A stretch of 64,000 bases of DNA from Eledone cirrhosa (taxonomy: Eukaryota), in NCBI GenBank assembly GCA_964016885.1, contig OZ024758.1:9610001-9674000 (forward strand), read 5' to 3'. The first letter of the stretch is position 1, and each line of letters opens with the position of its first letter. Positions 9,514 to 60,897 of the stretch are shown piece after piece. A model generated the notes under the pieces. That model ran no database searches. It was not told the DNA's origin and saw nothing but the letters and a program-made list of their open reading frames with translations. A program made the translations under genes and the position numbers.

Positions 9514-9574
9514 TATTTTATCTGATGAGAGCGTACCAACATTTTGGTACCCTTCAAATATATATAATAAAATA
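9514..9574 (+). ncRNA. Type I hammerhead motif with G12 to C core mutation (CAAA instead of GAAA), likely inactive
   Basis: Same stem I as the 10070 and 60827 copies; CTGATGA; stem II GAGCGTACCAA/TTGGTACCCTT; CAAA; ATATATAT palindrome; UA site. Confidence 0.65.
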
Positions 9575-9794
9575 AATATGGTGTCATAAATATAGTTTCC
9601 ATTTATTAACATCATTTATATATATATATACATAGGAAAATGTTTAACCCCGACGGCAGAGCTCAAGCCGTTTTGACGGCTTGAGCTCTGCCGTCGAGGT
9701 TAAACATTTTCCTATTACCCACTCTACTACCCTAAGTATTGAGTACTCTGGTGCGTTATGGTCCATCTGGTTCCTTACCACACTTCCTTCATTT

Positions 9795-9841
<47 letters not shown>

Positions 9842-9927
9842 AAACCCATAGTTTCAGAAGTTCCGTTAAGGGTGAAAGCAGTGATTCTTTGCTTAAACTT
9901 TAATCTGTTCTTATAATAAATAAATAA

Positions 9928-9976
<49 letters not shown>

Positions 9977-10069
9977 AAGGTTATATTTATCTATCCAGGA
10001 AGCTCCAACTGTTAAGGTTATCTTTTTTCAGAGTATGTCAATATTTATTTATAAAACTAATCTGTATTG

Positions 10070-10135
10070 TATTTTATCTGATGAAAGCGCACCATAATTT
10101 GCCTTGGTGGCCCTTGAAATATGTATAATAAAATA
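10070..10135 (+). ncRNA. Type I hammerhead ribozyme with intact core
   Basis: Stem I TATTTTAT/ATAAAATA; CTGATGA 10078-10084; stem II AAGCGCACCA...TGGTGGCCCTT; GAAA 10116-10119; stem III ATATGTAT (plausibly a CpG-decayed ATACGTAT palindrome); AUA site after 10127. Confidence 0.75.
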
Positions 10136-10247
10136 AATATGGTTTTATAAATATGGTTTTATAAATATAGTTTCCATTTGTTAATATATTGTATATATAT
10201 ATATATCCCACCAAGGCAAATTATGGTGCGCTTTCATCAGATAAAAT

Positions 10248-10280
<33 letters not shown>

Positions 10281-10667
10281 CATAAGGTTTCCCTGCTAGT
10301 ACCAGCTGCATCTCAGCGTACTCAATAGGTGAGGTTATGTAAAAATCCCAGAGTAGAAACATAGTTAATTGCTACAATACAACACACGTAAATGAGTACC
10401 ATAGATCTATAGCTGTACTCGAGTTTATATATTTGCAAGATATAGCGGTATACTAATCTAAGTAGCTATAGTTGATTGCCAGGCTGTATTCCCACGTGTA
10501 GCAATGTTCCACCACATGGCGGTTGAACACATGTGACCTATCTGTTTGGTAAGATCACATTAACATAGAGTAATGCTAATCCTTGATCGATTGCTGGCTG
10601 TGTGTACCAAGCTTCAGACTCCATATGCAGACTAACCTAATGTAATGTAAGATGGTGAGAAGAGAAG

Positions 10668-11080
10668 AGTGATGGTGATGATATTATGGTGGTGGTGGTG
10701 GTGGTGGTGGTGGCAGTGGTGATGGTGGCGGTGGTGCCAGCGTTGATGGCGTTGATAGCGGTGATGATGATGGTGGTGGTGGTGGTGGTGGTGGTGGCGG
10801 TGGTGGTGGTGATGGCAGTGATGGTGGTGGTGATGATGGTGGTGGTGATGGTGGTGGCAGTGATGGTGATGAAGGTGGTAGTGGTGGTGATGATGGCGGT
10901 GGTGGTGGTGATGATGGCGGTGGTGGTGGTGGTGATGGCGGTGGTGGTGGTGGTGATGACGGTGGTGGTGGTGGTGGTGGTGATGACGGTGGTGGTGGTG
11001 GTGGCAGTGATGGCAGTGATGGTGGTGGTGGTGATGGTGGTGGTGGTGATGGCAGTAATGGTGGTGGTGGTGGCAGTGTG
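10668..11080. repeat. (GGT/GAT)n trinucleotide array
   Basis: Direct reading. Confidence 0.95.
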
Positions 11081-11439
11081 ACATGTTGATGGCCAGTGTT
11101 GTGGTGGGAGTGGAAGCACTTTCGTTTTGTTGTTCTTTCTTCCTCCTCCCTCCCTTTGTCACTTCTCTCCTCTCCTCCCTTTATTTTGTTTCCTTTTGTC
11201 TATTCCCCCCCCCTCTCCACCTCCCTCTCTCTTAGACTCTCTTTCCATCTCTTGTGTTCTATCTCCCTCATCTCCCACCCCTAGCTTTCTCTCATCCCAT
11301 CTCTCCATCTATATACATATCACCCTCATAACCTCTCTCTACCCTGTATCCCCTCCCCTCACATCTCACCATTACCTCTCTCTCTACCCTTATCTTCCTC
11401 TCCCATTTATATCTCCTATTTATCTTCCTCTTCAACCAA

Positions 11440-12117
11440 TCTCTCTATCCTATCACTCACCTTTCTTTCATCTCTCCATCCTATCACTCACCTTTCTTTC
11501 CTCTCTCCATCTTATCACTCACCTTTCTTTCATCTCTCCATCTTATCACTCACCTTTCTTTCCTCTCTCTATCCTATCACTCACCTTTCTTTCATCTCTC
11601 TATCCTATCACTCACCTTTCTTTCATCTCTCCATCCTATCACTCACCTTTCTTTCATCTCTCTATCCTATCACTCACCTTTCTTTCATCTCTCTATCGTA
11701 TCACTCACCTTTCTTTCATCTCTCCATCCTATCACTCACCTTTCTTTCATCTCTCTATCCTATCACTCACCTTTCTTTCATCTCTCCATCCTATCACTCA
11801 CCTTTCTTTCATCTCTCTATCCTATCACTCACTTTTCTTTCATCTCTCCATCCTATCACTCACCTTTCTTTCATCTCTCTATCCTATCACTCACCTTTCT
11901 TTCATCTCTCTATCGTATCACTCACCTTTCTTTCATCTCTCCATCCTATCACTCACCTTTCTTTCATCTCTCTATCCTATCACTCACCTTTCTTTCATCT
12001 CTCCATCCTATCACTCACCTTTCTTTCATCTCTCTATCCTATCACTCACCTTTCTTTCATCTCTCCATCCTATCACTCACCTTTCTTTCATCTCTCTATC
12101 CTATCACTCACCTTTCT
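11440..12117. repeat. 31-bp pyrimidine-rich minisatellite (~21 units)
   Basis: Unit cctatcactcacctttctttcatctctc(c/t)at. Confidence 0.95.
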
Positions 12118-12169
12118 TATACTCCTAATTTTTCTCTCCTCTCTATCTCAGATCTTCTCTCCCCCCTCC

Positions 12170-12272
12170 TATTGCAGGTGTCACACATATTGCAGGTGTC
12201 GCACATATTGCAGGTGTCACACATATTGCAGGTGTCGCACATATTGCAGGTGTCACACATATTGCAGGTGTC
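12170..12272. repeat. 18-bp minisatellite (~5.5 units)
   Basis: Unit attgcaggtgtc(a/g)cacat, with alternating A/G variants. Confidence 0.95.
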
Positions 12273-12293
12273 TTATACATAGAGCAAGTGCTA

Positions 12294-12480
12294 TATCTAT
12301 ATAATACTAAAACTCTGTGATTGCTTGCTTGCTTGTCTGTAATGTAATACAGCCAAAAGGGCACATAGTGGGAAAATACTTTGAAAGGAGGTTGACCCAG
12401 AAATGGGGATACAAATGGAATAAAACAAGTTTCGCGTAAATCGGGGCACGGGTTCTTGAGATATGGCCAGGTACCTTCAT
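12294..12480 (+). mobile_element. Helitron-like 5' end (second family; inverted relative at ~18930-19118)
   Basis: TCTATATAATACTAAAA..CTGTGATT(GCTT)n..TGTAATGTAATACAGCCAAAA is shared in reverse complement with 19045-19117. Confidence 0.55.
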
Positions 12481-12643
12481 AAACAGAGAGAGAGAGTGTG
12501 AAAGAGATAGTGGTTATGAGAGAGTAGATTGAATTAGAGACATTGAGAGAGGGAGAGGATGAGAATGGAAGAGAGAGAGAGTGAGCTGGTGGTGTTGTGT
12601 ATATATATATATATGGTGGTGTGTGTGTGTATATATATATGCA

Positions 12644-12696
<53 letters not shown>

Positions 12697-12759
12697 ATAC
12701 TTGGGGAGGGTCATATTGTTGTAATATGTATATATATATACATATATATATGTATATAT

Positions 12760-12880
12760 ATATTAATTCAAAATATTAACAAAATATATATTCTTGTGAT
12801 CAAGTATATTTTATTATAGTTAACTTAAACTGTATGTCCTCATCAGATAAAATAAGATGATGCATGACATACCCTGACAT
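12760..12880 (-). mobile_element. PLE-like remnant with deleted hammerhead
   Basis: Minus strand reads gggtatgtca...TATTTTAT CTGATGA ggacatacagtt...TA ATAAAATA. The stem II 3' arm and GAAA are lost. Confidence 0.5.
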
Positions 12881-12941
12881 AGTAGATGGTTAAGATTCAG
12901 TCATGGTAGTTTAACTTTTAAATATATATATATATATATAT

Positions 12942-13278
12942 GGAGGCACATGGCTTAGTGGTTAGAGCATTGGCTTTGCAATCAAAAGGTTGTGAGTTCA
13001 ATTCTCAGACCGGGTGATGTGTTGTTTCCTTGAGCAAGACACTTTATTTCACATTGCTCCAGTTCACTCAGCTGTAGAAATGAGATGATAGGGACTGGGG
13101 TCCCTATCATTCCGCTGCAAAGTGGTCGTGGAGGTGCCATGGAAAAAAGCACCCAGCACTCACTGTAAATGAGGTTGGTGTTAGGAAGGGCATCCAGCTG
13201 TAGACATCAAGCCAAAGTAGGTTCCCGTCCCACCTTTGCAAGCAGGGAAAAGTGGACGTAAAATGAAATGATGATGAT
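12942..13278 (+). mobile_element. CORE-type SINE with RTE tail
   Basis: Near-identical to 7935-8282. Confidence 0.85.
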
Positions 13279-14067
13279 ATACACATACGCATATATGTGT
13301 ATATATATGTGTGTATACATCCATATATAAATGTGTATATATATGTATACATATATATGTATATATATATATGGGTATAAAATATGCTGCCTGACATTCT
13401 ACCAATACTGCCAATCCATCTCCCTAAGTGTGGCATACACATTGTTTGTGGGACATAGATATTGTAAATGGTTCATACATATTGTAAATATCATATTATA
13501 AATGACATATAAATATCACAAGCTGTACATTTTTGTTAAACTATTTGTGAGCCAATACTATAAAGCAGTTTCAATTATCTTAAAACACAAGTCTGAAGAA
13601 ATTAGTGTTGGTGTATCAACAAAAGTGAATTTTGATAAGTTTGTCTACCCCCAGGGAAAAGAAATATCTGACATTTCAAGGTTGTCCACTTGTCGAGGAA
13701 TAAAGTGAAAAGAGTTTTTTTTGTTTTTCTTCTGTCTCTCAGAGGGGGAGATAACTTCTCCCCATGGCATAGACATTTAGTAAAACTTTAAACTGTCATA
13801 CCTTAAGACTTTGTCATGCCAGCAGAGAAGATAGCAACATTAAAACAACAATGGTGTGTGTGTTTATGTATGTGTGTGTGTGTGTTTGTATGTGTGTTAG
13901 TCAGCTCTAATCAAGCAGATTTATGGTTAAACATTACGTTATCTGTCCTTCTTATTTCAAGACTGCAGTGTAATTTGAGGGAGATTTCACTATTATTTTT
14001 AACAGGACATATAACCACATAGACTTTCCCTTGTTCACTTGTGTGTGTATATATATATTTATATATA

Positions 14068-14599
14068 GGCAGACCCAGAAAAACCTGGGACGACTTGATA
14101 AATTTCGACCTCACACACTTACACCTCTCCAAGACAATGTCACTGGACCGAGATCTTTGGCGCTACACAGTAATAGAGAAGACCTGCCTTACCTAAATAC
14201 AAAGTAAAACCTACTACAGCCAGTAGGCACCTCTAACAAAATACACCCCCGCCCCACTACCCCCGCCCCATCCACACCACCCCTTTCAATGTAAAGTTAT
14301 GTTGGTACCACAACATCCAGCCCGAAACAAATGAGGTCGTGTAGGTGTCACGACAAAAAAAAACACAGTCCACGCTGTAATGTGGCCGTGTAGGTAACAC
14401 GGTAAAAACCTCCCAGCCCCACACTGTAAACGTGGTTGGTGTTAGGAAGGGCATACAGCCATAGAAAACCCACCAGACAGTCCTATGCGAGCAAGACAAC
14501 CACTCTTGACTCAAGTGGGAAAACTTCCGTCCAAACCCATGCAAGCGTGGAATATGGACTTTAAACGCTGATGATGATGATGATGATGATATGTGTGTG

Positions 14600-14666
<67 letters not shown>

Positions 14667-15088
14667 GGGATGAGATCATAAAAGCTGACCTTGCCCAGTT
14701 GCACCTCTCAAACCGAGACCTCTGGCATTACACAGTAATACAGAAGACCTGAGTTCCCATGGGTACAAGCCGAAGCTGAAGCATATAGACACTATGTCCC
14801 CAGCCTCTTCCCACTGTAAAGAGGTCATGTAAGTGTCACAACAAAAAGCACCCAGTCCACACTGTAAAGTGGTCGTGTAGACGCCACAGTAAAAAAGCAC
14901 CCAGCACTCATTGTAAATGAGGTTGCTGTTAGGAAGATCAACCAGTTGTACAAATCAAGCCAAAATCAGATCTGTATGAGCAAGACATGGTCACCTGACC
15001 TGGCATTGCCCACAACAGGACAACCCATCTAACCCATGCTAGCGTGGAAGAATGGACGTAAAACCGTGATGATGATGATGATGATGAT
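14068..15088 (+). mobile_element. Two successive RTE LINE 3' ends
   Basis: GRPRKTWDDLI-type coding remnants, each followed by the shared 3'UTR and (GAT)n (14068-14590 and 14665-15088). Confidence 0.85.
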
Positions 15089-16194
15089 ATATATAAATGT
15101 ATGTGTGTGTGTGTGTGAACTTTTAGAGCTGCTGAAGTTTTTAATATGTATGCCAAAGAAAATGTCAAAAACTAATATCTCTCTTCTCTCTTGGAAACAG
15201 ACAATCTTTGTTGTTTTTGTGGCCACTTGGGGTCTAAGTCAGGCATTTTCAATTGACAAAGTGTATCATTACTGAGTGTCAAGGATTCAATTGTTCCCAT
15301 AATATTGGATATTATACAGTAGAAACAACTTCACAGTGAATTTGAGCCTAGGATCTGGTTTAAATTCTCCATGTGAAAATATGACTCACAATTTTCTTTC
15401 CGTTCTTGTGTTAATTTAAAGCTTTATGTCTACATAGGAATTAATAATTAAAAATAAAAGTTAGCATTATAGGGTAAACTTAAGTAGTTTCTGCTGAGAT
15501 GAGTTTATCATATATTTGACACAGAAAATCAGACTGAATTATATTTGATCCACAAACACCTTACACTTGATATTCTTAATAACCCTTTCGAAACCAATCC
15601 ATCTAAAACAGTACCATTCTTTTATGATATTAAGCTGTTTATATACCTTCCAGTATAATTTTATCTTACAATTGTTATTAAATTATATTCCAAACATCAA
15701 CTTTATAAGGAAAAAGTTATTTTACTAAATACCTTCAAATTCTTGATTATTTTCAAAGAAATTAGGAAATCTTAAAAGTGTCTTTATGATAATGAAAGGA
15801 TTAATTCCCAAACTGAAAATCAGCCAATCTTTGCACACCAGGAGTTTGACAAACAATATGTCACTTGCAATATGCAAAGAAATTTAAGAACAAGAAAGGC
15901 ATAACTAATTCAAAGTTTGGCTTCTGGCCAAAATAGGAATACTTCTAAACAGCTACTTTCATTGAGAATATATTGATGCCTGCTGCTCAAGAAAACAATA
16001 TGTTGGTAACATTTATGGACATTTGTAAGACATTTAACAGTATAAACAGGGCATTAATTCAAAGTGTTATTCTATAAAGTGTCAAAATCATTCATTAATG
16101 CTCTTATCTCCCTGCATACTAATACTTTAATAACAGTAATGAATTTGAAAGACCACCCTTGTACCATACCTCTTCATAGTTGCTATGGATTATA

Positions 16195-16388
16195 TAATTG
16201 TTTCTACTTTTGGCACAAGGCCAGCAATTACCCCAGTGCATTACTGGTACTTTATTTTATCGACCCCGTAAGGATGAAAGGCAAAGTAAACCTCGGCGGG
16301 ATTTGAACTCAGAATGACAAGGACCGTAACTCTATGCGTCAAAGCATGGCATCCGACCCTCTACCGATACTGCCAACCCACTGCCTTA
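16195..16388 (-). mobile_element. SINE family 2
   Basis: Full-length reverse-complement copy. Confidence 0.85.
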
Positions 16389-17601
16389 TGGATTATATAA
16401 TGAGTATATCTCTGTAAAATAATAAATACTATATATGCTGGCCTATTGGGCATCCCTTTGTATAAGATGTGCCCTGCTTTTACAATGGCATTTCCTCAAA
16501 ATGTCCTTGTAAAGAATTTTAGTACATTTCTTCATAAATTTATTAAAAACTATTTCATTGTCTTTTCAGAAACTCTTACATATATAAGTTCAACATCATT
16601 TTGATTATATAAATTGTAATACTAATTGTATACTAATAGTAATACACACTAAATTTTTTTAACCCTGATTGTCCCCGCCCTCTGTCAGCATCCCGTTGGT
16701 GATACTGATGTATTGGGTGCAGAAAAGATTTTTTAATGTTTTTTGAGAAGTGCGTCCAATATGCCAGCAAATACGATACTTGGTGGAATAAAAGTAATAC
16801 AGATGAAAGTATTTCTCTTCCTCCTCACTCCCTCTTCATTATCTTCCTCCCCTTCTCTCTCTTTCACATTTCCTCTCTGTCTCACACACACACACACACA
16901 CACACACATAAATCTATTTACAACTATTTCTTATTCCTCACTTCACCTCCTTCCCTTCTCCCTTACTTTTCCTCTTGACCACAACTTCTTTTTATCTACC
17001 TATTATGTGTTATTGTCACTCTCTCTCTCTCTCTCTCACTCTCTCTCTCTCTCACTCTCTTTCTCTCTCTCTCTCTCTCTATCTTTATCTCTCTCTCTCT
17101 CATATATATTCTCTATTATGGCTAAGTGATGAGTCTTGTTACTCTTCTTAATGCAAATGTTCATAGTATCATTACTTGTGGACAAATCATTGTGAAAATA
17201 TGTAGCATTAGGGTAAAAGCTTTAAAGTCCAGGGTTAGTTTGTACTCTTCAAGAATGTCTTTCTAATGTGGCTTTATGTGGTACAGGAAGACAGGATAGA
17301 GTGGTATTGAGTGACACACTTCAGTTTATTAGCTTATAATTCTATAGCATCAGCTGGCTTCTGTCTTTAGTAGAGTCCACTCTGTTGCAATCCAATCTGA
17401 AGATAAATCCTTCTTTCCTACCCTTCCACCAGTCATGCTGGCTCCAAGAATGGTCAGCCCCCATCCCCCCCTCTCCCTCCTCCTCCTAACTAAGCCACCC
17501 AAAAAAGTAAAAAATAAATAAATGTGTCATGTCTTCTATATAATGTATTCTACCATTGAAAAAAAAAAAATGTGTGTGTGTAAGTGTGTATGTATATGTG
17601 A

Positions 17602-17651
<50 letters not shown>

Positions 17652-19184
17652 TGTATATCAAAAGGAAAGATATAAAAATCTGCAACAAACTTGTCCGTTC
17701 CGGAGATTTTCTGTTATTCTGGAGTAGTTTGTGGAGATTGATCTGATCTGTCTAATTATCTCAGACTGGTAAAAGTGCTGAGAAATGGTTCAGTTGCAAT
17801 AAAGGGTTCTTTGCTATATTTGTGTGTGCTACTGTTACCATGTAACCCAGTGCAACCTGCTTCATAGTGGAGTGGTCAGCAACTAAACTGGCTCCCCAAC
17901 AGGACCCTAGTCTGGTGAGGAGAGTAAGTGGAATCCCAGCAACACACACACACACACAAAAAAAAACAAAAAAAAACAAGAGCTGTAAAAAGTGCAGATG
18001 AACACCTCAGAGTCAACAGCCATCCACCCCAACTATGGGTTAGATAGCTTCACCAACCTGCAATTGACAAAGTGTGGTGAGTGCAATTACACCCCTGGCA
18101 TGACTATAACCAAACAGAAAATGATGGTCGTCAACCAGGGAGGGGTTCCTTCAATAGGAGTGAGAAAAATTGGATTGTATGTTGAAGTTTAACCATGTAT
18201 ATTCAGTTTAGAATAGCTACACCATATCTCCTGCATATCATAAAAAATTACAAAAAGGTTTTATTCTCAATATTTAAACTAAACAATTAATTGTTTTTTT
18301 TTTTTTTAAATCAACAAAAACGACCTAGAAAAATTACCAATTTACCAATCCCCTCCCCACCTATTCTAAGCCCCCCAACTACCCCCCACCCACCTTGCAC
18401 ATTTATTCCAACTTAGGGCCTGAGAGTATTTTTGTTTGATGTATTTATAATTTTGTACTGAATGACCAGAATTTTAGTAAATACTAGACCACCTGTTAGG
18501 TCACGTTCACTTAGAAATATTATTTTAAAATCATGTTCACTTAAAAATGATTTTTAAATAATTAAAATATACAGACATTTATTTAATGCAAAATAAGATT
18601 GGAAGGCCCATTTATATGTGTGTGTATGTGTATATATATATGTGGGTGTCTGTGACTGACATACACTGGTCACAGACACACTCACTTATACACAGTCATT
18701 TAGAAACCCTTCCTATTTAGCAGGAAATATGAGACAGTAATGCTGTATTCGGTTCTTTGAAGTCACCCATTATAATTTCATTCAACAACGCCACCAGCTC
18801 TTTCTCTCTCTATGTCTCTCTTTCTCTCTCTATGTCTCTCTTTCTCTCTCTATGTCCCTCTTTCAATCTATTGTCTCACAACTGCTATCCCTTTCTTTCT
18901 ATCTTTCTCTCTCTGTTTATGAAGGTACATTGAAAATCTCCGTATCTCTGGAACTCATGCTCTGATTTATGTGAAACTTGTTTCATTCTATTTGTATTCC
19001 CATTTCAGGAGCAACTTCCTTTCAAAGTATTTTCCCATTATGTACCGTTTTGGCTGTATTACATTACAAACAAGCAAGCAAGCAAGCAAGCAATCACAGA
19101 ATTTTAGTATTATATAGAAGATAGATAGAATATCATTTGGAATATAAATATTGGATTTCCCGGTTACTTATGACTCACTCTGTA

Positions 19185-23067: not shown

Positions 23068-23098
<31 letters not shown>

Positions 23099-26230: not shown

Positions 26231-26281
<51 letters not shown>

Positions 26282-26289
26282 AAAACAAT

Positions 26290-35678: not shown

Positions 35679-36574
35679 ATATATATATATATGTTTTTCT
35701 ATTACTTTTCTTTCAATATTCAACCAGAAAAATTGAATGATTTACAAAATTGTCTTTATTGGGGGTTGAAAGGTCAACTAAATATCTTCAGAACTTAACA
35801 TAGCAGCAGCCGCCTCTCAAAGTTTCTTTGCTTCTTTTCCTTTATTTTTCTTTTCTTTATGAGATGTTAAAACAAGTTGAATAAAACATGTAATTAAATT
35901 ATCTTGAAATCATTTGGCTTCATGCAATTTATATAGACTTGAAATGTAGTAGGAAGTATCTAAGAACTTGTTATTGAAATTTAGACAAACGTGGGAAGCC
36001 AAAGAAGACGCAGTGATATGAAACAGTTTTTGCCTGAAGCATGAGACTATTAAACAAAATGCCTTGTGATGTTTGTTTTGGTTCCTTGCCTTCTGAATTC
36101 AAATCATTTTAAGGGAAAAGCCTTTTGTAGCCAGCAGTGGTGGTAGCTCCCTGAACTTCTTCCACCCCGTTCTTGCCCTGGTTACTGTACTTTCCGAACA
36201 CCCACCTCCGCTGCTAATTCGGTCACCTAGGTAGCAGAAGATGTCTACTGTTTCTGCAGAGCCCTCCCAGAAATGGGTAGTTTTTGTTTCCTGTGGCTGT
36301 TTGCTGCTTGCTGTCCCGGTTCAACTGCTACATGTAAAGCCTTCATTCTAGACTTCCTGAGATCCCACTACATCTCTTGTGTACCCATAGTTTGCATTTG
36401 GAGCAGAGGATGGGGTCCCAACCTACACCTTTCCTACATACTAACCAAGGCCATTTCCCTGAGGGGATCTGGGTTCTGTTTTCTCGTCTACTTACGGGAA
36501 CCTAAGTCTTTGTCAGGTTGACTCTGAGACTCCTTCTTTCTATTCCCTGCTTCCATGTTTGGAATATATATAAC

Positions 36575-36806
36575 CCAACGGCTTATTTAAATCTACTCTG
36601 ATTTAAAAATATCCGAAACTAATTTACATAATAGTATAAATAAATTTATAACCCCACTTTCCGGGAGCTTCCAACAGAAATGGTCGCATTCTTTAAGGGT
36701 ATGTCAATATTTATTTATAAAACTGTTCTATATTATATTTTATCTGATGAAAGCACACCACAATTTAACTTGGTGTTTTATAAATATAGTTTCCATTTGT
36801 TAATAT

Positions 36807-36812
<6 letters not shown>
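36575..36812 (+). mobile_element. PLE-like short element with internally deleted hammerhead (stem I 5' arm plus CTGATGA at 36736-36750)
   Basis: Homologous to 9975-10195 (gtatgtcaatatttatttataaaact...tattttatctgatgaaagc...ataaatatagtttccatttgttaatatattg). The GAAA half is missing; ends in (TA)n. Confidence 0.6.
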
Positions 36813-36996: not shown

Positions 36997-37280
36997 CACA
37001 TGGCATAGTGGTTAGAGCATTAGGCTTGCAATCGAAAGGTTGTGAGTTCAATTCTCGGACTGGGTGATGTGTTGTTTCCTTGAGCAAGACACTTTATTTC
37101 ATGTTGCTCGAGTTTAATCAGCTGAAAATGAGTACCAGCAATAGCTGGGGGTTTAACCTTGCGATGGACTGGTGTCCTGTCCAGGGGGGGGGGGGGGGTC
37201 TTGTACTCTCAGCCGCTTCACACCATGAAACCGGGATAAGCACCGGCCAAATGAGCCTTCTGGCTTAAGACAGACTTTAG
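36997..37280 (+). mobile_element. CORE-type SINE (tail type 1)
   Basis: Head as in the 7935 family, tail as in 982-1263. Confidence 0.75.
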
Positions 37281-37353
37281 ATATATAAATACATACCTAT
37301 ATATCATCATCATCATCATCATCATCAAATCAGACGTAAAATGATGATATGTT

Positions 37354-40332: not shown

Positions 40333-41717
40333 GTTTTTTTTTGTTTTTTTTTTGTTTTTTTTTTTGTTTTTTTTTTGTTTTTTTTTTCCAGAAGTGGGGT
40401 TGGAGGTAAAATAATAATGGGAATTGGAGACAGTAGTTCCTCTTTTCGTTTCACCTCTTAGTTTCCTCAGACTGAGTGACGGCCAGATATTTCTCTGCTT
40501 TTTACTGTACCACATTATAGTCATGCTGTGTCAGATTGTTATCAATACATGACCCGTTATCTGAGAATTGTTATCAACACATGACCGGTATCTGAGAAGA
40601 TATTTTATTGCTAATTAGGTTAGTTTAGAAGATATTTACTTCATTGTTATTTAATCCTTGATATAATTAAAACATTATTTTGCCATTAATTACTCACAGA
40701 AATAATTATCTTCTGATAAGTTATTATCAGTTACAATTTCTGTTTTATTTAACAGTGCTAAATAGTGTAAGATCTAGTTCCCTTCTATACTAACAATTGT
40801 TAGGGTGGCTTTTATTATTGTCAGTACATATAGATATTTTCTCTGTGACTTGCTGGAGCAAGTGATTTCATAGTTAGTGTTATGATATATGTATGGGCCT
40901 GTAACACTTGGAGAGTTATAAGGGCGGCATATAGTATTTCTAAAGCATTTTTAAACTTGACAGAACCCATCTCCTTTCCAGGTCTGAATACAGCAGATTT
41001 CTTCCAGAGAAGGATAGAAAGTGAGAGAAAGGAAGTGAGAAAGAGATATAAAGGAAGAATCGACCCCAGTACTTGACTGGTACTTTTTTTTTTTATCGAT
41101 CTTGTAAATTCCTTAAGAGATTATATCTGGAACATACTTTACACAACAGTTTAATCTACAAGTTTAATCTTCAATCCTTGCATCAAAAATTGGACAAAAT
41201 AGCTGGGCCAAGTAAATTTGACACTTCAACAAACTCTCCTTATTGTGGAACCCTGTTGATACCAACTTGCCCAAAACCACCTCTGGTTCTATGAAACTAA
41301 GCCATTCATTTTTAAGGGATCCCATTTGAATTAATATTTTCCAACTAATTTGTTATAGAAACCATTTGTTATGTATAAATATCATCTATTTCTCCAATCG
41401 CTCAATGGTCTGCTGTTCAATCTCTTACACATTTTTATTAAAATAGCAAAAAAATTAGTTTCTATTTTCATAGAAACAGGTTCATCAGAAAATCTTCTCT
41501 GGCGTTTTTCTCAAAGTCCTTAAATAATTTTGAAAAGAAACTCTTAAACTCTTACTAAATTGTTGAAAATGAAACTCTTTGCAATTAGAGAAGTTAAGAA
41601 AATGGAAACATTTTGCAGGAAAGATTGTAATTTAGTGACAGATTGTAGGTCCATTTCCTTCATGTTTTGATAATGTAAGCAGATGTGTTATTATCTGTTG
41701 TTCATAATTCCTACATT

Positions 41718-41920: not shown

Positions 41921-42720
41921 CTAGATGTCTAGGAATGGAACTGAAATTGTGTTGATGCTAAGATAGTGAATGTCAGAATGGAATTAGTTTTAAGATCTTT
42001 CAAAAGATTAGTTTGTTTATTAGTATTTCTTTATAAATAGAAAAACACAGAAATAAAAACCTAAACAGTAAGAGCTTTCATAAATACAAAATATTCTGTC
42101 GTTAGACGAGCTTTTAAATTTATATTCTCTTAACCACACTGACATGATTGCACCTATTTTTTTCTTTTTTGCTTCTTTCTAGCTCTTCGTTACTCTTGAT
42201 GGAGTTGTAGGGGTGTCATGTCTTGGGCATTTTAAATTTAGTGGAGCCCATCCCTTTGTATGTCAAAAGACAGCTGATTTCTGCCACATATATATATTTG
42301 GTCTTTCCAATTGCTAATACTATCTATCGGTCACAACTCCAGGTAGAAGGAGCAACATGAAATAAAGTGTCTTGCTCAAGGACATAACACATTGTCCGGT
42401 CCAGGAATCGTACTCACAACCTAGCTATTGTGAATCCAGTTCTCTAACCAATCAGCCACACGCCTTCACTATCTAGTGAAGCCTACATTCTTAACTAAAC
42501 TTTCTGAGATCCCACTACATCTCTTGTGTACATAGTTTGCATTTGGGGCAGAGGATGGAGTTCCAACCTACACCTTTCCTATATACTGACCAAGGCCATT
42601 TGCCTGAAGGGATCTGGGTTCTGTTTTCTCATCTACTTACAAGGACCTTCGTCTTTGTCAGGATGACTGTGAGACACTTTCTTTCTAGTCCCTGCTTCCA
42701 TGTTTTGGAATTTCTTCTTT

Positions 42721-42875
42721 AGTTTCAGCTAACAGTGTAAGATCATCCGCATACCAAAGTTTCCATGGGCATCCGGTCTTAAACTCCTCTGCTATAGCCT
42801 GCAATACTATAATAATCAGGAGATGGTCAAGAACAGAGCCCTGGTGGACACCGATCTGTATGCTAAATTCTTCTC
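42721..42875 (-). mobile_element. RTE RT fragment including the YADD motif
   Basis: Minus strand translates EEFSIQIGVHQGSVLDHLLIIIVLQAIAEEFKTGCPWKLWYADDLTLLAET. Confidence 0.88.
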
Positions 42876-42881
42876 AGCCCA

Positions 42882-42922
<41 letters not shown>

Positions 42923-42932
42923 AACAAGTAGG

Positions 42933-43028
42933 ACCCCGACGGCTGAGCTCAAGCCGTTTCGACAGCTAATTCTGGACTAAATAAAAATTTTTATCCTGGT
43001 ATTTGAATAGCCGAGCTTCTCAGGGGGT
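42933..43028 (-). ncRNA. Type I hammerhead motif of a second family (GUC site), with one core deviation
   Basis: Minus strand reads ACCCC-CTGAGAA-long stem II (GGCTA/TAGCT)-GAAA-CGGCT[TGAGCTC]AGCCG-TC-GGGGT. The core is CUGAGAA rather than CUGANGA. Flanked by (TA)n on both sides. Confidence 0.65.
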
Positions 43029-51280: not shown

Positions 51281-51299
51281 ATGTCATAATGTCGTAATG

Positions 51300-51507
51300 C
51301 AGACAGCCAGATATTATAAGGGCGCAATGTTATAGCTATCTAATGCGGTCCCTAGGGCATTGAAAATTTGAAATATGTTTTGCTCAAAACACTCACGCGA
51401 CCATAAGTATTACATGTGTAAAGTTTGAAAAAAATTGGTCGGGTGGTTCTGGAGTTTTAGGGAGACATACAGACAGACAGACATTCTCTGATTCAGATAT
51501 ATAGATT
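51300..51507 (-). mobile_element. Helitron-like 5' portion
   Basis: ACAGACAGACAGAC...ATATATAGAT end, as at 7280-7320. Confidence 0.55.
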
Positions 51508-52398: not shown

Positions 52399-52437
<39 letters not shown>

Positions 52438-52858
52438 CTTGAACATTTTTTTACACATAACTCACAGTGTGTGTGTATATGTGTTGATTTATCAATATGT
52501 GTGTGTAAACATAGCCAAATTGTTAAGAGGTTTGCTTTATAATGAGATCCCAAGTTCAATCCAAGCAACAGACATCTCAGCAAGTCCAACTGAATGTCAA
52601 CCTGGTTTGCTTCTATTTAATCAAGACTTAACTCTCAACTCTGAGACAAGAATAAATTATAGCTTTCAATACAGTAAATTAGAGACAACCTTGATACAGT
52701 CCTCCGACCAGGTGCTAACCTCTCTCAGGGGGAGGGGACATACCTGAATTGACTATACACAAGTGTTTGGCTGATTCAATACAGCCATGCACCGCTGGGG
52801 TCTGTGGCCATCAACAGCTTGCCAGTGTGGCTGGCCAGAGCAGACTGCAGAACCCGAT

Positions 52859-53297
52859 TGAGTGCCCTGATCTCTACCCACCTGAGAGTGTATGGACCTC
52901 AACCTCATATACCTTAATCCCACTACCCTGAGCTGGTTGCAGCACCCAAGGGTTGTCATGTAGTGGGTGAGTGCCCTGATCTCTACCCACCTGAGAGTGT
53001 ATGGACCTCAACCTCATATACCTTAATCCCACTACCCTGAGCTGGTTGCAGCACCCAAGGGATGTCATGTAGTGGGTGAGTGCCCTGATCTCTACCCACC
53101 TGAGAGTGTATGGACCTCAACCTCATATACCTTAATCCCACTACCCTGAGCTGGTTGCAGCACCCAAGGGATGTCGTGTAGTGGGTGAGTGCCCTGATCT
53201 CTACCCACTCGAGAGTGTGTATCTCATGCCCTCTACTCCCACCTCTACTCCCACTACTGTGAGTTGGTTGCAGCACCTGGGGCAGGGGGGATGTCAC
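52859..53297. repeat. 109-bp tandem repeat (~4 units)
   Basis: Unit starts tgagtgccctgatctctacccac; ORF starts are offset by 109 bp. Confidence 0.92.
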
Positions 53298-56230
53298 TTG
53301 ATTGCAGTCTCATACAAAAGAAGATGAAGTATTCCGAGAAGTGTCTTTAACCCTAGGTCAGTCCAAGACTTGTGAGTGAAACAGGATTGAGTGAAAAGTT
53401 CATAGGCTGACAATGACAGTGGTTGTGGTGGTGGTGGTGGTAGTGGTGACAGTGGTGGTAGTGGTGGTGGTGGTGGTAGTGGTGGTGGTAATAATTGATA
53501 GGAAGAAGAATGGTCACACCTGATAACTTGTAGAGATGATACTTTGGGGCTAGTTATTGTAAAGGTGATGCTGGGGGGGGGGGGGCAGTAGCTGTTGTGA
53601 GGTGGTGGTGGTGATAGGGGGGGGGGTTAGCAGTAGCTGTTGTGAGATGCTGGTGGTAATAGGGGGGTAGTAGCTGTTGTGAGGTGGTGGTGGTGGTGTT
53701 GATAGGGGAGGTTAGCAGTAGCTGTTGTGAGATGGTGGTGGTGATAGGGGGGGGGGGTAGTAGCTGTTGTGATGTGGTGGTGGTGGTGATAGGGGGTTAG
53801 CAGTAGCTGTTGTGAGATGGTGGTGGTGATAGGGGGGGTAGTAGCTGTTGTAAGGTGGTGGTGGTGATGTGATAATTTGTGTATTTTTCTGGCTGAAACC
53901 AAGAAATATGTGCAAATGCCATGCAGCACAGCAAGGGAAAATTGAAGATAAATAATTCAGTATTGACCAGCAAAGTATGGATTAACTGTTCCTCTGCATA
54001 AGGTGGATAATGTTGCTTGCCTCAGGCAACTTGGCTGACAACAGGTTTCACTCCACTCCACTTCAATTAAACTTTTGAGGTCATTAGTGGAAGAAATTAC
54101 ACTTTTAATGCCAAAATAGTGATGAGAGGCTGCTAGCAAGAGTTGTACTGGTATCCACAGATAAAGTCAATTCTTAATCAGAACCACTGATCTCTCAGAT
54201 TATCTGGGACTTCATCTCTCTTACATGTATCATTGCACTCTACAAAATGAACTGTGTGTTTTAGAGAGGTTCTTATATCCTTGACATAACTGAAGAGTCC
54301 TTTCTGCCCTGCCCTTTGTTTGGCAAGTTTTCTATAGCTGGATGCTTAGAATGTACTGTGCATGTCTTATCTAAATCTAACACTACATTATACAATAGGC
54401 CTTTCCTTCAGTTCCAACCAGGCCAAAACCGGCCCTGGTTCTATGAAATAAAACCATCCATTTTAAAGTTTCCAATTTAAAAATCAAATTTTCCAACATA
54501 ATTTTATATTAGAACCTTACAATAAGTTTTTGTCTTAGTAATGACAATAGTACCAGTGGCACCCCAACAACTAGCTGTACCAGTGGCACCCACCCCAACT
54601 ACTAGCTGTACCAGTGGCACCCCAACAACTGACTGTACCAGTGGCACCCCAACAACTGACTGTACCAGTTGCAGCAACATCACAGTGATAACTATCTTTC
54701 TAGCCTGTCTTGAGTCTGTATCAGTTTTATTAGTATTTCTAAAACCTACAAATTTACAGTAGGTATCACACATGTTATTACAAGGTGAGCAGAAAAACGG
54801 CTATAAACTATCCTTACAATTAAGTGGCAAAACCTTCCTTGTCCTAAATACTCAAATGTCAGCTGACTATTATTATAATGAAGAGACAGTTGGTTATATA
54901 TAATTTCATATTTTGTTGTTGTCATTGCTCTTGTCATGTCATCATGGCTGCTGTTTTAGTGACAGTTGGAGTTTGGTTGAAGTTGTATTTGTTTTTGTTG
55001 TTGCTATTGCTGTGGTTGTAGTTGTTGTTGCTGTGCTTGTTGTTGTTGTTGTTGTTGTTGTCATTTCTGTCTGCTGTTTCATTGTTGTCATTGCTCTTAT
55101 CATCATGAGGAGGGGGAGGGGGTGTTTATTTGTTGTTATTTTTGTTGACATTGTTCTTGTTGTCCTTGTTTTTGTCACCACTTCAGATCTGTCATTCATT
55201 AGCAGCTCTGGTAAGGAGGTTCAAGGCCATCATTATATTTTTATATGGTAATGGTGCTATTGTTGTGATTGTTTATGTATTATTTTTGTTTGTTATTTTG
55301 TTGTTTTTTTTGTTTTGGGTTTGTTTTTCTCTAAATCTTCACTTCCATTGTACCATTATGACAACAGAACTGTCCAGAGGGCAAATCTCTTGCTCCAGGC
55401 AGAATCAAAAGATTTACTCTCCACCTCAACCCTTTGTCCACCACTTAAAACTTTGTACTCAATCAGAGTGTTGACCTCAAAACAATTAACTACATAGTAA
55501 CAATATATTCTTTCAGCTCTGCTTACTAGTGCTTCCATGCTCTTCACAAGTCTGTCATACCTTCTATATGTTCCTTTGATATATTCTGTTGCTTTGTCTT
55601 AACAAGTGCCAGCTGTAGAGGCAGACAGTAACTTCTTAGAAGACTGACAGTACAACCTACTTTCAAATTCCCAAGTTATAATAACCATTTCACTTCATCT
55701 AGTTAACACCTTTGGTAAAGGCATGAACACCACAACATACAATTTCCTCCCATCCGAACGTCTATGGCAGTGTGCATGTGTAAGAAATTATTGTTATTAT
55801 TACTGTTATTTTATTACCCCCCCCCCCCCCCCCTCCCCCCCTTAGAGGTTGATGAAATACGTAGGTACCAGTGATGTATTAGGGTCAATCTAATATAGTC
55901 TATTTTTTATCATTCAGTTCAAAATCATTGTTGTTATTGTAAATGGCAGTTCGTGAGAGTTCAAATCCTACTACGGTCAACTTTACCTTTCATCCTTCCA
56001 GGCTCAATAAAATAAAATACCAGTAAAGAACTAGGGTCGATAGAATCCCCCCCCCCCCGCCCCAATTATTGATTTTGTGCTGCGAGGTTAACTTTGCCTT
56101 TCATCCTTACGGTAATTGCTGGCCTTGTGCCAAAAGTAGAAACAATTTATTATTTGCAGTTCAAATCCTGCCATGGTTAGCTTTACCTTTCATCCATCAG
56201 GGGCCAATAGAATAAAGTAGCAGTTAAGTA

Positions 56231-56412
56231 AGAGGGTGAGTTAAACAGTTAATAGGCTGACTATAAAGGAGTTATGCTAGAGCTGTGCAATTTTGCATGA
56301 ATACTGACTCTTCTTATTAATAACTGCATTGTTTCTTTCCAGGGACTATATTGAAAAATAAACATCATGAGAGTATCTTGGTTAGCCTATGAACTTCTCA
56401 GCCAACCCTTAT
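56231..56412. mobile_element. mariner-type MITE
   Basis: Same TIR family, decayed. Confidence 0.65.
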
Positions 56413-56949
56413 ACTGAGGTTGATGTAATCAATTTTGTCCTTCCTCAAATTGCTTGCCTTGTGTCAATTTTAGAAAAAAATTATTAATTGCAGTGGGCTG
56501 ATCACCGTGGTGATATAATATCAAAATAAATGCCTGGCAATTTCTGAGGTTTAATTTTCTAGAGTTCTCTGTTGGTTCTGAGTACAAATACTACTAAAGC
56601 TGATTTTTATCTTATATTTCTATTTTATGTTATTGTTTTTTTTAACCAGTTCCTAGTTTAATGGTTAAACCACTGGTTTACTGATAGAATAAATACCAGT
56701 AATTTATTGGTAGTTAATTCAATAAATTATAACTCTTTCACTACAAATACAAATTCCTGCATTGAGTTTAAGTAAGAGATCCTTATTAGTTTCTTATATT
56801 GATTTCTGTTATATACTAATATTGTTTGGGGAAAGGCAGCAGATGCAAGTTAAAAATAATGGAGTGAAACACAAGAATAAAGAAAAACAAAGAAGAGCAA
56901 CAATTTATACTTATATTTCATGTTATTTCGAGGTTAACTTCGGATCATA

Positions 56950-57190
56950 ATGCGGTGAGTTCGATTTTTGTTCCAGATTGTCTATTGTTTTCTTGAGCAA
57001 AACACTTCATTTCACATTGCTCCAGTATACTGAGTATTTTAGTACCAGCAATAGCTGAGGGTTTAACTCTGTAATGGACTGGCTGCCTGTCCAGGGGGAA
57101 GTCTTGTACTCTCAGTCACTTCAAGCTTTATAAACCAAGATAAACACTGGCCTGATGAGTCTCCAGGCTTGAGACATATTAGACTTAGAA
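56950..57190 (+). mobile_element. CORE-type SINE (tail type 1), 5' decayed
   Basis: Homologous to 982-1263. Confidence 0.7.
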
Positions 57191-57231
57191 TGTGTTAATG
57201 TACATTTCTTGATGCATGAATTTTTAATTAG

Positions 57232-57390
57232 AATTCTACTGCTCCCTGCATTGGAATTCTACTGCTCCCTGTATTAAGTTCTACTGCTCCCTGCATTAGA
57301 GTTCTAATGCTCCCTGCATTAAACATGTTCACACCCTGAATTAAACATGTTCACTCCCTGCATTAAACACGTTCACTCCCTGCACTAAAC
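57232..57390. repeat. ~22-bp minisatellite abutting the 3' splice site
   Basis: Repeated ctccctgcatta..; the last unit ends ~30 nt before the acceptor. Confidence 0.85.
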
Positions 57391-57420
57391 TGTTACACTT
57401 CTTGTTTTCTTTCTTTACAG

Positions 57421-57564
57421 GTGATACCAAAAGTGTCATCCATTGGGGAAGAACTCGCCTATCTAGAGAAAGACCGCTCAATTACCACTGACCCAACGGA
57501 GAGCAAAAAGAGACGTACAATAAAGTTAATACGAACAAATTCATCATGGGGTTTCACCTTACAG
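57421..57564 (+). CDS. Internal coding exon beginning a PDZ domain: VIPKVSSIGEELAYLEKDRSITTDPTESKKRRTIKLIRTNSSWGFTLQ (tamalin/GRASP/CYTIP-like)
   Basis: Long polypyrimidine tract ending TTTACAG, 144 nt open (phase 0/0), donor CAG|GTAAAT. RRTIKLIR..SWGFTLQ matches PDZ strand A plus the GLGF-type loop and, from recall, resembles the R-x-I/L-x-L/V...F/YGFxI/LQ start of GRASP/CYTIP PDZ domains. Confidence 0.85.
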
Positions 57565-57584
57565 GTAAATATATAGTTTTGGTG

Positions 57585-58071
57585 CTACGACAAAAAGCAG
57601 CCAGTCCACACTGTAAAGTGGTCATGTAGGTCTCACGATAAAAAGCAGCCAGTCTACACTGTAAAGTGGTCATGTAGGTGTCACAACAAAAAGCAGCCAT
57701 TCCACACTGTAAAGTGGTCATGTAGGTGTCACGATAAAAAGCAGCCAGTCCACACTGTAAAGTTGTCATGTAGGTGTCACAACAAAAAGCAGCCAGTCCA
57801 CACTATAAAGTGGTCATGTAGGTGTCACAACAAAAAGCAGCCAGTCCACACTGTAAAGTGGTCATGTAGGTGTCACGACAAAAAGCACCCAGCACACACT
57901 GTAATTGTGGTTGGCATTAGGAAGGGCATCCAACCATAGAAACCAAGCCCAAACCAGTTCTGTATGAGCAAGACATGCTCATCTGATCTAGCATGTCTCA
58001 CAATGGGACACCTCATCTAACTCATGCTAGCATGGAAAAATGGTTGTTAAACGATGATGATGATGATGATG
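57585..58071 (+). mobile_element. RTE 3'UTR with 48-bp tandem array (~6 units)
   Basis: Unit aaaaagcagccagtccacactgtaaagtggtcatgtaggtgtcacaac. A related array in the opposite orientation lies at 32808-33175. Confidence 0.8.
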
Positions 58072-58530
58072 TTCACCAGCATAAGCAAATGTGAATTATT
58101 TTGTCCAAGGTACACTATACCTGAAATAAAGTTCGAGTGGACATGGGTTTGCTCTTGATCAGAGCTAAACAACAATAACATATATAACCAGCAGAGCTGT
58201 TCATTATTTCAATATAGTAAGTGTGGGTTGGTAGTCTTTGGTGTGGGTTGGAGATGTCTTCTCTTGTGAAAATGGCTATAGCTTTCATTATGTAAGATCT
58301 CCTCATATTGCCTCAATTCGCCACATTTTGGGCACTTTTTTTTCATGGCACCCCCTGTTTGGGCTTTTAGAGGTTGGCGTGTCTGTTATAGGTACTTGAT
58401 TGGTCCTTCATTTGCTCTATCATAGTGTGAAGCCAAGTCAGTTTTGGTTGTTACCCAGAAATGCGACTAAAGGATTAAGTTCAATGTCCTATTCATTCTG
58501 TTAATATGCTGTTTTCCCAACAATATTCTA

Positions 58531-58712
58531 GGATTGGCAGTGTCGGTAGAGCGTCGGATGCCATGCTTTGACGCAGAGTTACGGCCCTTGCCATTCTGAG
58601 TTCAAATCCCGCCGAGGTTAACTTTGCCTTTCATCCTTACGGGGTCGATAAAATAAAGTACCAGTAATACACTAGGATAATTGCTGGCCTTGTGCCAAAA
58701 GTAGAAACAAAT
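58531..58712 (+). mobile_element. SINE family 2
   Basis: Near-identical to 35493-35678. Confidence 0.85.
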
Positions 58713-59574
58713 ATTCTATCACTCCTCAAACTGTTGTTTATCATAGTTTTATTTTTGTGTGTCATTTTAAAAAATATTAATACGAGGAAATTAATATTTC
58801 TAAAAAAATTGTTTTCTAATTTTCCCAAATAATGTAATTGCTTTTTCGTTTTTTTTTTGTTTTTTTTAGTATTTTTAGTTTTTTTAAACTTGAAATTTGA
58901 ATTAGTTATTATTAATATTAAAATTTTTAAATTCCTGCAACATTTTTCAAAGTATTTTGTTTGTCTGCATCAACAGAAAACATTGCCAGTAGATACCATC
59001 TGATGTTAAAAACTACATAGTATAATTTATATAAACTAGGTTAACATATTCGATTGGCTTCTGCACAGTTTCCATCTGCCAAATTCCACAATCCAACGAT
59101 AGGAGAATAACGTATCCTGTTTCCTACTTGCACAATGATGTTTCAAAAGTTTGACAACTACTATGGTATAACATGTGTAGGGTGGGTTTTAGAGGAAGAA
59201 CTTGTGATGATAGTGAACATACAAGTGTACATTATAGTATTCAATGGTTTCGTCTGAGGTCATATTGACCTTTGACTTTCAAACTGTTCAATGGCTGACC
59301 TTTGAATAGTTTAAGTATAGGTTAGAGTTGACCTTTACCTTTAATCCCTCTGAGGAGGTGAGTCAATGAAATCAGCAGCAGTCAAATAAACTGAAGCTGA
59401 TAAAATCAAGTGTAGCATCTCTTATTAGAAGTAACACTATTGAATTATTAAAGACTGGTTTGGAAGGGGAGGAAGATTTTATTATATTTTATTTCTGAAA
59501 TAGCATAGCATCTAGGTCTTCTTTTAAATATGGCTTTAAAGAAGAATAGGGGACATTGGTGTGGGGTAGGGTAT

Positions 59575-59835
59575 GTATGGTCCTGTAATTCCTCATGGAG
59601 TCATAGGGGCACTGTAGTGCCATACAGCATTTCTAGGGCATTTTAAGCCTGGCGGAGCCCATCTTCCCTTCATATCTGAACACAGCAGATTTCTTCCAGA
59701 GAAAGATAGAAAGTAAGAGAGAGGAAGTGGGAAAGAGATATAGAGGAAGAATCAGTCCCAGTACTAGACTGGGACTTTAATTATCGACCTCAAATGGATG
59801 AAATGCAAAGTTGACCGCGGTGGGATTTAAACTCA
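59575..59835 (-). mobile_element. SINE with family-2 body but a different 3' region (also 40900-41100 minus and 44010-44275 plus)
   Basis: Shared gcagatttcttccagaga..gatagaaag..gaaagagatata..ggaagaatc segment joined to the family-2 central domain. Confidence 0.6.
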
Positions 59836-60418
59836 GGTTATCTTAGACAAAATCCAAAAGTCTGTGAACGTAATGCCGTATGATGCTCATTTTACAGCCA
59901 AATTTACAAAAAGAAGAGAGAATCTTCTCCACAAGTTCACCATAATTATCAGCCTTATAGTTCCTAAGGAAATTTTTCCTTGATGATCATGTATACATCT
60001 CAATGTTGTCCAGTTAATCTTGGAAAAGCTGGTCTTTCATGAAATATCCAAAATGTAGTCTAAACTCCCAGAATCCAAGAATATATATAAGTGGTTGTGG
60101 AGGTGCCACGGCAAAAAAGCACCCAGCACTCACTGTAAATGAGGTTGGTGTTAGGAAGGGCATCCAGCTGTAGAAATCAAGCCAGAATCAGTTCCCGTCC
60201 CACCCTTGCAAGCAGGGAAAAAGCGGACGTAAAATGAAATGAAATGATGATTGTGTGTAACATGTTAGCATGGAAAAATGGACATTAAACAGTGATGATG
60301 ATGATACAGGGTGGTGCTAAAGTCACGCACCAGTAAAATAACATTTTGTCATAATATCTTCATATTTGTGATATAAAAGTTTTTCTTGTGATTAGGGTAG
60401 TGTATGACTTTTGCATTA

Positions 60419-60463
<45 letters not shown>

Positions 60464-60640
60464 GGAGAGGTGGTAGTGCATTATAAGCCTTCGCCCCCTC
60501 ACCAGATGTTCTTTAGTAGATTCAGTTGCCACCACTTTGAGGGCGACTGGCCGAGCAGCTAGTTGGTCAGTCGTCCTCTTTGTCTCTGTCTCTGATTTTT
60601 CGGACTCATGGTTTTTTACATATTCGTTTGTTATATTCGA

Positions 60641-60698
60641 ATACCTGATGATATCACCGGATTCATATGGAACCCGGTCATTGAAATGATCATAGTAT
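60641..60698 (+). ncRNA. Type I hammerhead ribozyme motif
   Basis: Stem I ATAC/GTAT; CTGATGA; stem II ACCGG.TTC/GAA.CCGGT with a weak base (U.U at the first pair); GAAA; palindrome ATGATCAT; AUA site after 60694; AATAAA follows immediately. Confidence 0.7.
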
Positions 60699-60826
60699 AA
60701 TAAACCTTTCAAGGATTTACACCAGTCCAGCCTCCTGTTATTTTATTTTATTTATATATATATATATATATAGATTTAACACTTCACTGCTCACAAGTGT
60801 TTTTTAAGCTTCATATCATGTCTCCC

Positions 60827-60897
60827 TATTTTATCTGATGAGAACGCAAATATCATCCCATGATGATATTTGTTTTTGAAATGCGCATAATAAAATA
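60827..60897 (+). ncRNA. Type I hammerhead ribozyme with intact core
   Basis: Stem I TATTTTAT/ATAAAATA (8 bp); CTGATGA 60835-60841; 16-bp stem II (GU pairs, one C.U mismatch, CCAT loop); GAAA 60878-60881; palindromic stem III ATGCGCAT; AUA cleavage site after 60889. Confidence 0.85.

Follow-up and report, generated by a model that had tools for sequence, protein, structure and literature searches.

The window analysed here is a 64,000-nucleotide (nt) stretch of Eledone cirrhosa DNA (assembly GCA_964016885.1, contig OZ024758.1, positions 9,610,001 to 9,674,000 of the forward strand, renumbered below from its first letter). It holds six loci of a type I hammerhead ribozyme motif, labelled by the start of their cores as A (9522), B (10078), C (12846, minus strand), D (36744), E (60645), and F (60835). 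All motifs quoted in the original prediction, which had described a covarying hammerhead family in this stretch, are present in the sequence: TATTTTAT-CTGATGA starts at 9514, 10070, 36736, and 60827 on the plus strand and at 12854 on the minus strand, the 3' strand of stem I of copy C ending at 12807, and TA-ATAAAATA follows downstream at every such locus except 36736. The copies, the element bodies that hold them, and the adjoining inverted pieces are as follows.

9514-9574, plus strand: copy A; stem I 9514-9521/9567-9574, core 9522-9528, stem II 9529-9554 with C.C at pair 4, palindrome TATATA, AUA site after 9566.
9458-9616, plus strand: element body of copy A, with its 3' end at (TA)n, 50 nt past the cut site.
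10070-10135, plus strand: copy B; intact core 10078-10084, stem II 10085-10115 with C.C at pair 4 and one bulged G, GAAA 10116-10119, near-palindrome TATGTA, AUA site after 10127.
9974-10191, plus strand: element body of copy B, with (TA)n on either side and a 14-nt tandem duplication in its 3' tail.
10208-10254, minus strand: inverted partial copy of B between TA runs, comprising the stem I 5' strand, the core, and most of stem II.
12807-12854, minus strand: copy C, decayed; stem I and CTGATGA retained, stem II cut to 13 nt.
About 12760-12920, minus strand: element of copy C, between TA runs.
36736-36775, plus strand: copy D, 5' half only, in an element at about 36572-36811 that ends at (TA)n.
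60630-60705, plus strand: copy E; intact core 60645-60651, stem II starting with U.U and with C.C at pair 4, GAAA 60683-60686, palindrome TGATCA, AUA site after 60694, 3' end at (TA)n, 58 nt past the cut site.
60827-60897, plus strand: copy F; intact core 60835-60841, stem II of 3 bp, C.U, and 12 bp, GAAA 60878-60881, palindrome TGCGCA, AUA site after 60889.
60773-60932, plus strand: element of copy F, between TA runs.
About 60963-61026, minus strand: inverted copy of the F 3' end, heavily 5'-truncated, running from GAAA to the tail.

The full layout, i.e., stem I, CTGATGA, a long stem II, (G/C)AAA, a 6-nt palindrome, TA, and the 3' strand of stem I, is found in A, B, E, and F, referred to below as the complete copies. 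These fold into three helices open at stem I, with stems I and II pairing in all four, and the stem III regions (TATATA, TATGTA, TGATCA, and TGCGCA, each with an AUA site) are palindromic or G.U-palindromic. The predicted palindromic stem III with an AUA triplet thus stood for these four copies and failed at the other two, with the non-palindromic TAACTA at the stem III place in C and the loss of stem III from D. The type I core (C3 U4 G5 A6 N7 G8 A9 / G12 A13 A14 A15.1 / U16.1 H17; consensus from PMC3088659) is intact at B, E, and F and broken at the remaining three loci. In copy A, CAAA replaces GAAA, and inactivity is predicted from this loss of G12 (to C), the residue described in PMC2553840 as the general base; copy C has no GAAA, while in copy D a deletion between short TGGT repeats took GAAA, stem III, and the stem I 3' strand. 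The motifs are genuine copies of the type I hammerhead, a self-cleaving RNA fold, half of them broken; where complete, they combine a palindromic stem III with an AUA site.

A hammerhead descriptor, composed with the copies already known, gave four matches in the window compared to a mean of 0.005 and a maximum of 1 in 200 block-wise dinucleotide shuffles, and four compared to 0.07 when the palindrome was not required. As a control, a pattern based on sequence alone was run on viral and metagenome contigs; among its 83 distinct matches, none united a palindrome with stem I and a stable stem II. This pattern scan picked out 9 loci in viral contigs and 98 in metagenome contigs, almost all of them chance matches, and tighter patterns had no match in genome contigs and none in viral contigs. 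Over the four complete copies, 95.8% of 72 cells are paired, two-sided changes occur in 7 of 18 pairs, the covariation score was reached by none of 500 shuffles, and sliding the pairing partners lowered pairing to 36-55%; with four sequences and a structure derived from those same sequences, these pair statistics are descriptive and carry no probability. The curated Rfam models returned no hammerhead family among 150 of 157 window matches listed (up to E=10), nor among all four matches to 60560-60925. Model R1, trained on the four complete copies, recovered copy C (38.4 bits, outside the training set), copy D, and the inverted B piece with E values of 0.018 or lower, found the inverted F piece only weakly (E 1.2), and gave no further hit in the window. 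On 100 of the 107 viral and metagenome pattern loci it scored 30.1 bits at most.

The loci do not make up the single family that had been proposed. Copies A, B, and D belong together (87%, 83%, and 93% identity over aligned columns), with C, F, and E more distant, although these identities are gap-free, concern AT-rich sequence, and are hence rough; the six loci represent about four lineages. The claim of a constant stem I was only partly borne out: its sequence is identical in A, B, C, and F, but part of this constancy is shared descent because A, B, and D are one family, and copy E differs, its stem I consisting of 4 bp followed by a 3-nt bulge and another helix, although it keeps most of the 3' strand. 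By comparison, the stem II sequences differ yet pair in all four complete copies, and the pyrimidine mismatch reported at the fourth pair was seen in each of them, as C.C in A, B, and E and C.U in F. The C at this pair is invariant across the six loci. Pair 1 is G.U in A and F, A-U in B, and U.U in E, so that U11.1 is constant; U10.1.U11.1 as in E is a tolerated hammerhead form according to PMC3088659.

The pair-4 mismatch sits at the point where loop 2 starts in canonical hammerheads, whose tertiary contact, as given in PMC11875169, joins an A of loop 2 to U1.7 of stem I. Here, U1.7 is present in all complete copies but paired, and there is no short loop 2 with a conserved A at pair 4-5. The mismatch may have a tertiary or protein-binding role. 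Neither a conserved C.pyrimidine at pair 4 nor these families were found described in the literature searched, although the alignment of dimer-cleaving variants from Penelope-like elements (PLEs) by Lunse, Weinberg, and Breaker may well include them. A bolder proposal, which we consider unlikely but worth stating, is that these copies form a distinct hammerhead subclass, defined by a 3-bp proximal helix closed by N.U11.1, the pair-4 C.pyrimidine, and an AU-rich stem I that hardly varies even though stem II is divergent. Such features might reflect an undescribed contact between stems I and II or a switch site for the PLE protein, and the lineage palindromes would limit dimer cleavage to like partners. 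If this were true, the motifs would escape Rfam and perhaps strict descriptors, and some PLE families regarded as hammerhead-less may carry them.

Relatives of E and F were sought at 80% likeness in the public sequencing runs X1, X5, X17, and X21, using as the query a 466-nt segment that holds both (60465-60930). Matches comprised 3855 contigs of run X1 and 5024 of the 12,467,656 raw reads of run X21 (restriction-site-associated DNA sequencing, RAD-seq); run X5, which bears another organism label, gave 12 contigs with F only, and run X17, presumed to be RNA, gave no matching contig, which has no bearing either way on expression. Because X21 depth reaches hundreds to thousands on both hammerheads (2-6 at 60513-60576), the E and F hammerheads are abundant repeats, with the caveat that read depth does not equal copy number.

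Among the 40 of 82 variant rows listed, to which the following counts of changes refer, all eight variants at paired positions of F are pair-preserving: four turn A-U into G.U, two G.U into A-U, and two C-G into U.G. With 25 of 46 possible F transitions keeping the pair, eight of eight would have a probability of approximately 0.008 if the variants were independent, which subfamily haplotypes are not. The sole change in the conserved core concerns the free position N7 (19-22%), the pair-4 mismatch is untouched, and the changes in E comprise one A-U to G.U, two in the loop, and others at the palindrome centre. A change in the F palindrome is nearly absent in X1 and coincides in X21 with 1141 molecules ending at one place. 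Changes within the family are one-sided, and two-sided changes occur only between lineages. Read by eye, a subfamily of 8 contigs shows seven stem differences in the 5' half of F, all compatible with the 3' half in the window and with the position-4 C kept; another of 6 contigs appears to have A at position 4, which would close the mismatch. Adenosine-to-inosine editing as the force shaping the variants was rejected, as places with T>C are as many as those with A>G (9 versus 7 in X1 and 12 versus 10 in X21).

We give almost no credence to the view that these are chance hairpins or AT-rich look-alikes free of selection on RNA structure. Stem I and some palindromes are indeed AT-rich, the folding z is unremarkable in four of six copies, and only four sequences are complete; against this stand the four descriptor matches compared to 0.005 expected, the absence of any match among the 83 controls, and, among the variants listed, a core unchanged except at N7 and eight of eight changes that keep the pair. 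The results support that the stem pattern reflects selection on the hammerhead fold, as originally predicted, with descriptor matches, pair counts over four copies, and listed variants all pointing the same way.

We then considered the surroundings of the motifs. All six loci end at a TA run, and the hammerhead lies near the 3' end, the cut site being 50 nt from (TA)n in A, 64 nt in B including the 14-nt duplication, 58 nt in E, and 43 nt in F, i.e., 43-64 nt from the end in all four complete copies. The 5' ends vary, with the previous TA run 62 nt (F), 75 nt (C), 104 nt (B), and 172 nt (D) before the core. Inverted partial copies adjoin two of the six loci: that of B is an internal piece, near-identical to 10064-10111, and that of F lies tail-to-tail with F over one shared TA tract, with one mismatch outside the TA run. 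From what is observed, namely a conserved fold, 3' ends shared at (TA)n, truncation, inverted partial copies, and abundance, we conclude that the motifs are most likely type I hammerheads in the 3' pseudo-long terminal repeat (pLTR) of several PLE families, heavily 5'-truncated and inserted in (TA)n. Since no PLE reading frame was found, the link to PLEs is one that we infer from anatomy.

The same surroundings bear on two other origins. One, doubtful in our view, holds that the 150-300-nt units are non-autonomous elements, either PLE-derived and similar to short interspersed nuclear elements (SINEs) or monomers of retrozymes without long terminal repeats (non-LTR retrozymes), transcribed and mobilised in trans by a PLE protein, and not products of truncation. 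It would account for the concentration of depth on the hammerhead and tail with a steep fall upstream and for B, C, and F being short with TA runs on both sides, and retrozymes are described in bioRxiv 10.64898/2026.07.22.740005 as deriving from pLTRs and occurring as monomers. However, the 5' ends differ between copies, as for truncation, and no tandem array of any such unit is present in the window; moreover, 556 X21 reads run on upstream of 60636 with related but different sequence, which points to subfamilies and not to a fixed 5' end. Thus, where the original prediction left the choice between a PLE-derived and a retrozyme family in (TA)n, the former is the best reading and the latter fits poorly with the lack of tandem units in the window.

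The other, which we regard as very unlikely, would make the motifs the 3' ends of a different microsatellite-targeting non-LTR retrotransposon with a hammerhead, e.g., of the Dong/R4 type. PMC13282606 counts Dong-R4 among the groups most active in Octopus vulgaris. A 5' truncation is common to all elements resembling long interspersed nuclear elements (LINEs), but a type I hammerhead at the 3' end, combined with a palindromic stem III and with inverted partial copies, is what has been published for PLEs. Dong targets microsatellites, and we know of no hammerhead in R4 elements.

Several observations weigh against assigning the motifs to PLE ends under selection for a palindromic hammerhead. 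No PLE open reading frame, i.e., telomerase-like reverse transcriptase plus GIY-YIG, was found in the window in a Pfam scan of the 150 longest of 227 stop-to-stop peptides, as would be expected of truncated ends. The inverted copies are tail-to-tail or internal, whereas the usual PLE form is head-to-head (PMC3846280). Folding energy alone is ordinary in four of the six copies (z from 0.36 to -2.60), and the palindrome centre of E is altered in 5% (X1) and 25% (X21) of depth. Unlike the published minimal consensus, there is no extra base after A9, before 10.1, and G10.1-C11.1 is replaced by G.U, A-U, or U.U with a constant U11.1. Lastly, the octopus PLE ends in the published material consulted (the Hydra-1_Obim hammerhead and the 3' ends of Naiad_Obim, Ovul, and Omin) do not match the window families.

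The Pfam scan returned only two weak matches to RVT_1, neither adjoining a hammerhead:

5296-5898, minus strand: RVT_1 fragment, weak Pfam match.
42688-42873, minus strand: RVT_1 fragment, weak Pfam match.

By their motifs, we take both fragments to be pieces of RTE-type LINEs and not of PLEs.

Under the PLE origin favoured here, a PLE protein produced elsewhere, combining a GIY-YIG nuclease with a reverse transcriptase, would nick TA tracts and begin copying the RNA about 45-60 nt downstream of the ribozyme; copying that stops early would leave 150-300-nt ends that contain the hammerhead. On a tandem transcript, the 8-nt palindromes (15.1 to 16.1) of two hammerheads would anneal in trans, and the paired dimer would cut after AUA, probably helped by the protein of the element. 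Stem III has only 2 bp in the monomer and 8 bp as a trans duplex; a dimer would be needed for cleavage because stem III closure in the monomer costs about 1.9-2.0 kcal/mol, while the palindromes self-pair at -3.2, -2.2, -7.2, and -10.5 kcal/mol. PMC6765202 reviews dimer cleavage, and PMC3088659 depicts it for stems III that are palindromic. Separated by 190 nt, the E and F palindromes would leave two central mismatches on pairing with each other, which suggests that dimers are probably family-specific. Selection for dimer cleavage in active source elements would explain stems that are paired yet divergent, and it most likely acts on those elements because three of the six local copies are broken; inserted single copies would decay neutrally and be mostly inert.

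For one PLE, PMC11167929 reports nicking of both strands at AT-rich sites, internal initiation, and hammerhead cleavage that needs assistance by the protein and can be dispensed with for in vitro insertion. Natural families with differing palindromes and a conserved stem II mismatch are ready variants for probing dimer specificity and protein assistance, and the copies supply a model for annotating repeats missed by Rfam. As genome content, they are ordinary retroelement debris.

Other features were noted near the copies. A SINE-like insertion (9295-9436) lies just upstream of copy A with a 21-nt target duplication on its flanks (9274-9457), and directly after the TA tail of A is a long near-perfect inverted repeat (9632-9715), to which sequence at about 42920-42960, also adjoining a TA run, is related. 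The motif GTATGTCA is common to A, B, C, and D (9483, 10033, 12873 on the minus strand, and 36697), 25-40 nt upstream of stem I, and absent in E and F; its GTATGT resembles a 5' splice site but may instead belong to an extension of stem I. A separate minimal-hammerhead-like motif at 61280-61320 on the plus strand (CTGAGGA, extra A, 4-bp stem II, GAAA, CG, TC) has the published layout of minimal hammerheads, with a decayed stem I and no other copy in the window, and another decayed motif of this kind (CTGAGGA ... GAAACG) lies at 40430-40480 on the minus strand. A repeat of approximately 190 nt with 77-78% identity occurs behind a tRNA-like SINE head at 1082-1274, 37096-37289, and 57009-57176, and in at least two of its copies CTGATGA and a short hairpin are present but an intact GAAA is lacking. 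Outside the window, a non-coding, eukaryote-like metagenome contig carries a plausible unrelated type I hammerhead with a near-palindromic stem III (L026, 4990-5048, plus strand; L078), with no PLE open reading frame of 100 amino acids or more nearby.

Comparison with known systems places these motifs close to PLE hammerheads. Cervera and De la Pena 2014 (PMC4209133) describe the latter throughout the metazoans, for the most part as lone motifs belonging to truncated elements; their families are highly variable and rich in covariation, and those of flies, mosquitoes, rotifers, and shrimp (Drosophila and Aedes among them) have a helix III that is small and palindromic. The palindromic stem III, the variable paired stems, and the many families per genome that had been singled out as remarkable are therefore general traits of PLE hammerheads. 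The window copies share with those of PMC4209133 the type I topology, the CUGANGA/GAAA/UH core, a long helix II, divergent families with compensatory changes, and mostly single dispersed motifs, and with its Drosophila and Aedes rows the palindromic 15.2-16.2 region, U15.2-A16.2, and an AUH site. They differ in a longer, AU-rich helix I (8 bp) and in the C.pyrimidine at pair 4 of all complete copies, where two rows of PMC4209133 show single mismatches, Clonorchis (2) with U.U and Strongylocentrotus (1) with C.A.

Insertion in (TA)n is reported by Craig et al. 2021 (PMC8557442) for Hydra and Naiad, with a microsatellite bias also for Neptune, and in the (TA)n-targeting Hydra-clade PLEs, including Hydra-1_Obim of Octopus bimaculoides, about 100 nt separate the hammerhead from the 3' end. 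The window families resemble the Hydra clade in (TA)n insertion, a hammerhead near the 3' end, and inverted truncated copies; unlike Hydra-clade PLEs, they lack an open reading frame for clade placement, and the Hydra-clade stem III arms described have a 1-3-nt loop and mostly C15.2-G16.2, which differs from the palindromes here. As a candidate for the missing hammerheads of octopus Naiads, the families were rejected, since the published 3' ends of Naiad_Obim, Ovul, and Omin gave no match, with the limit that line breaks and interrupted runs in the printed sequences may conceal matching strings. The portion of PMC13282606 on O. vulgaris counts 31 recently active Penelope-like families and leaves ribozymes unmentioned. 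Animal non-LTR retrozymes, as presented in PMC7229834 and bioRxiv 10.64898/2026.07.22.740005, are likewise repeats that are short and non-coding and carry a type I hammerhead whose helix III is weak, but form tandem units of about 150-450 nt, mostly with canonical loop 1-loop 2 contacts, whereas the copies here are single, differently truncated, and long in stem II. Altogether, the window probably holds new families of PLE-associated hammerheads of a known kind, with one modest undescribed trait, the pair-4 mismatch. Their nearest counterparts in architecture include the small PLE hammerhead variants of Lunse, Weinberg, and Breaker, which have a diminished palindromic stem III and reportedly cleave as dimers.

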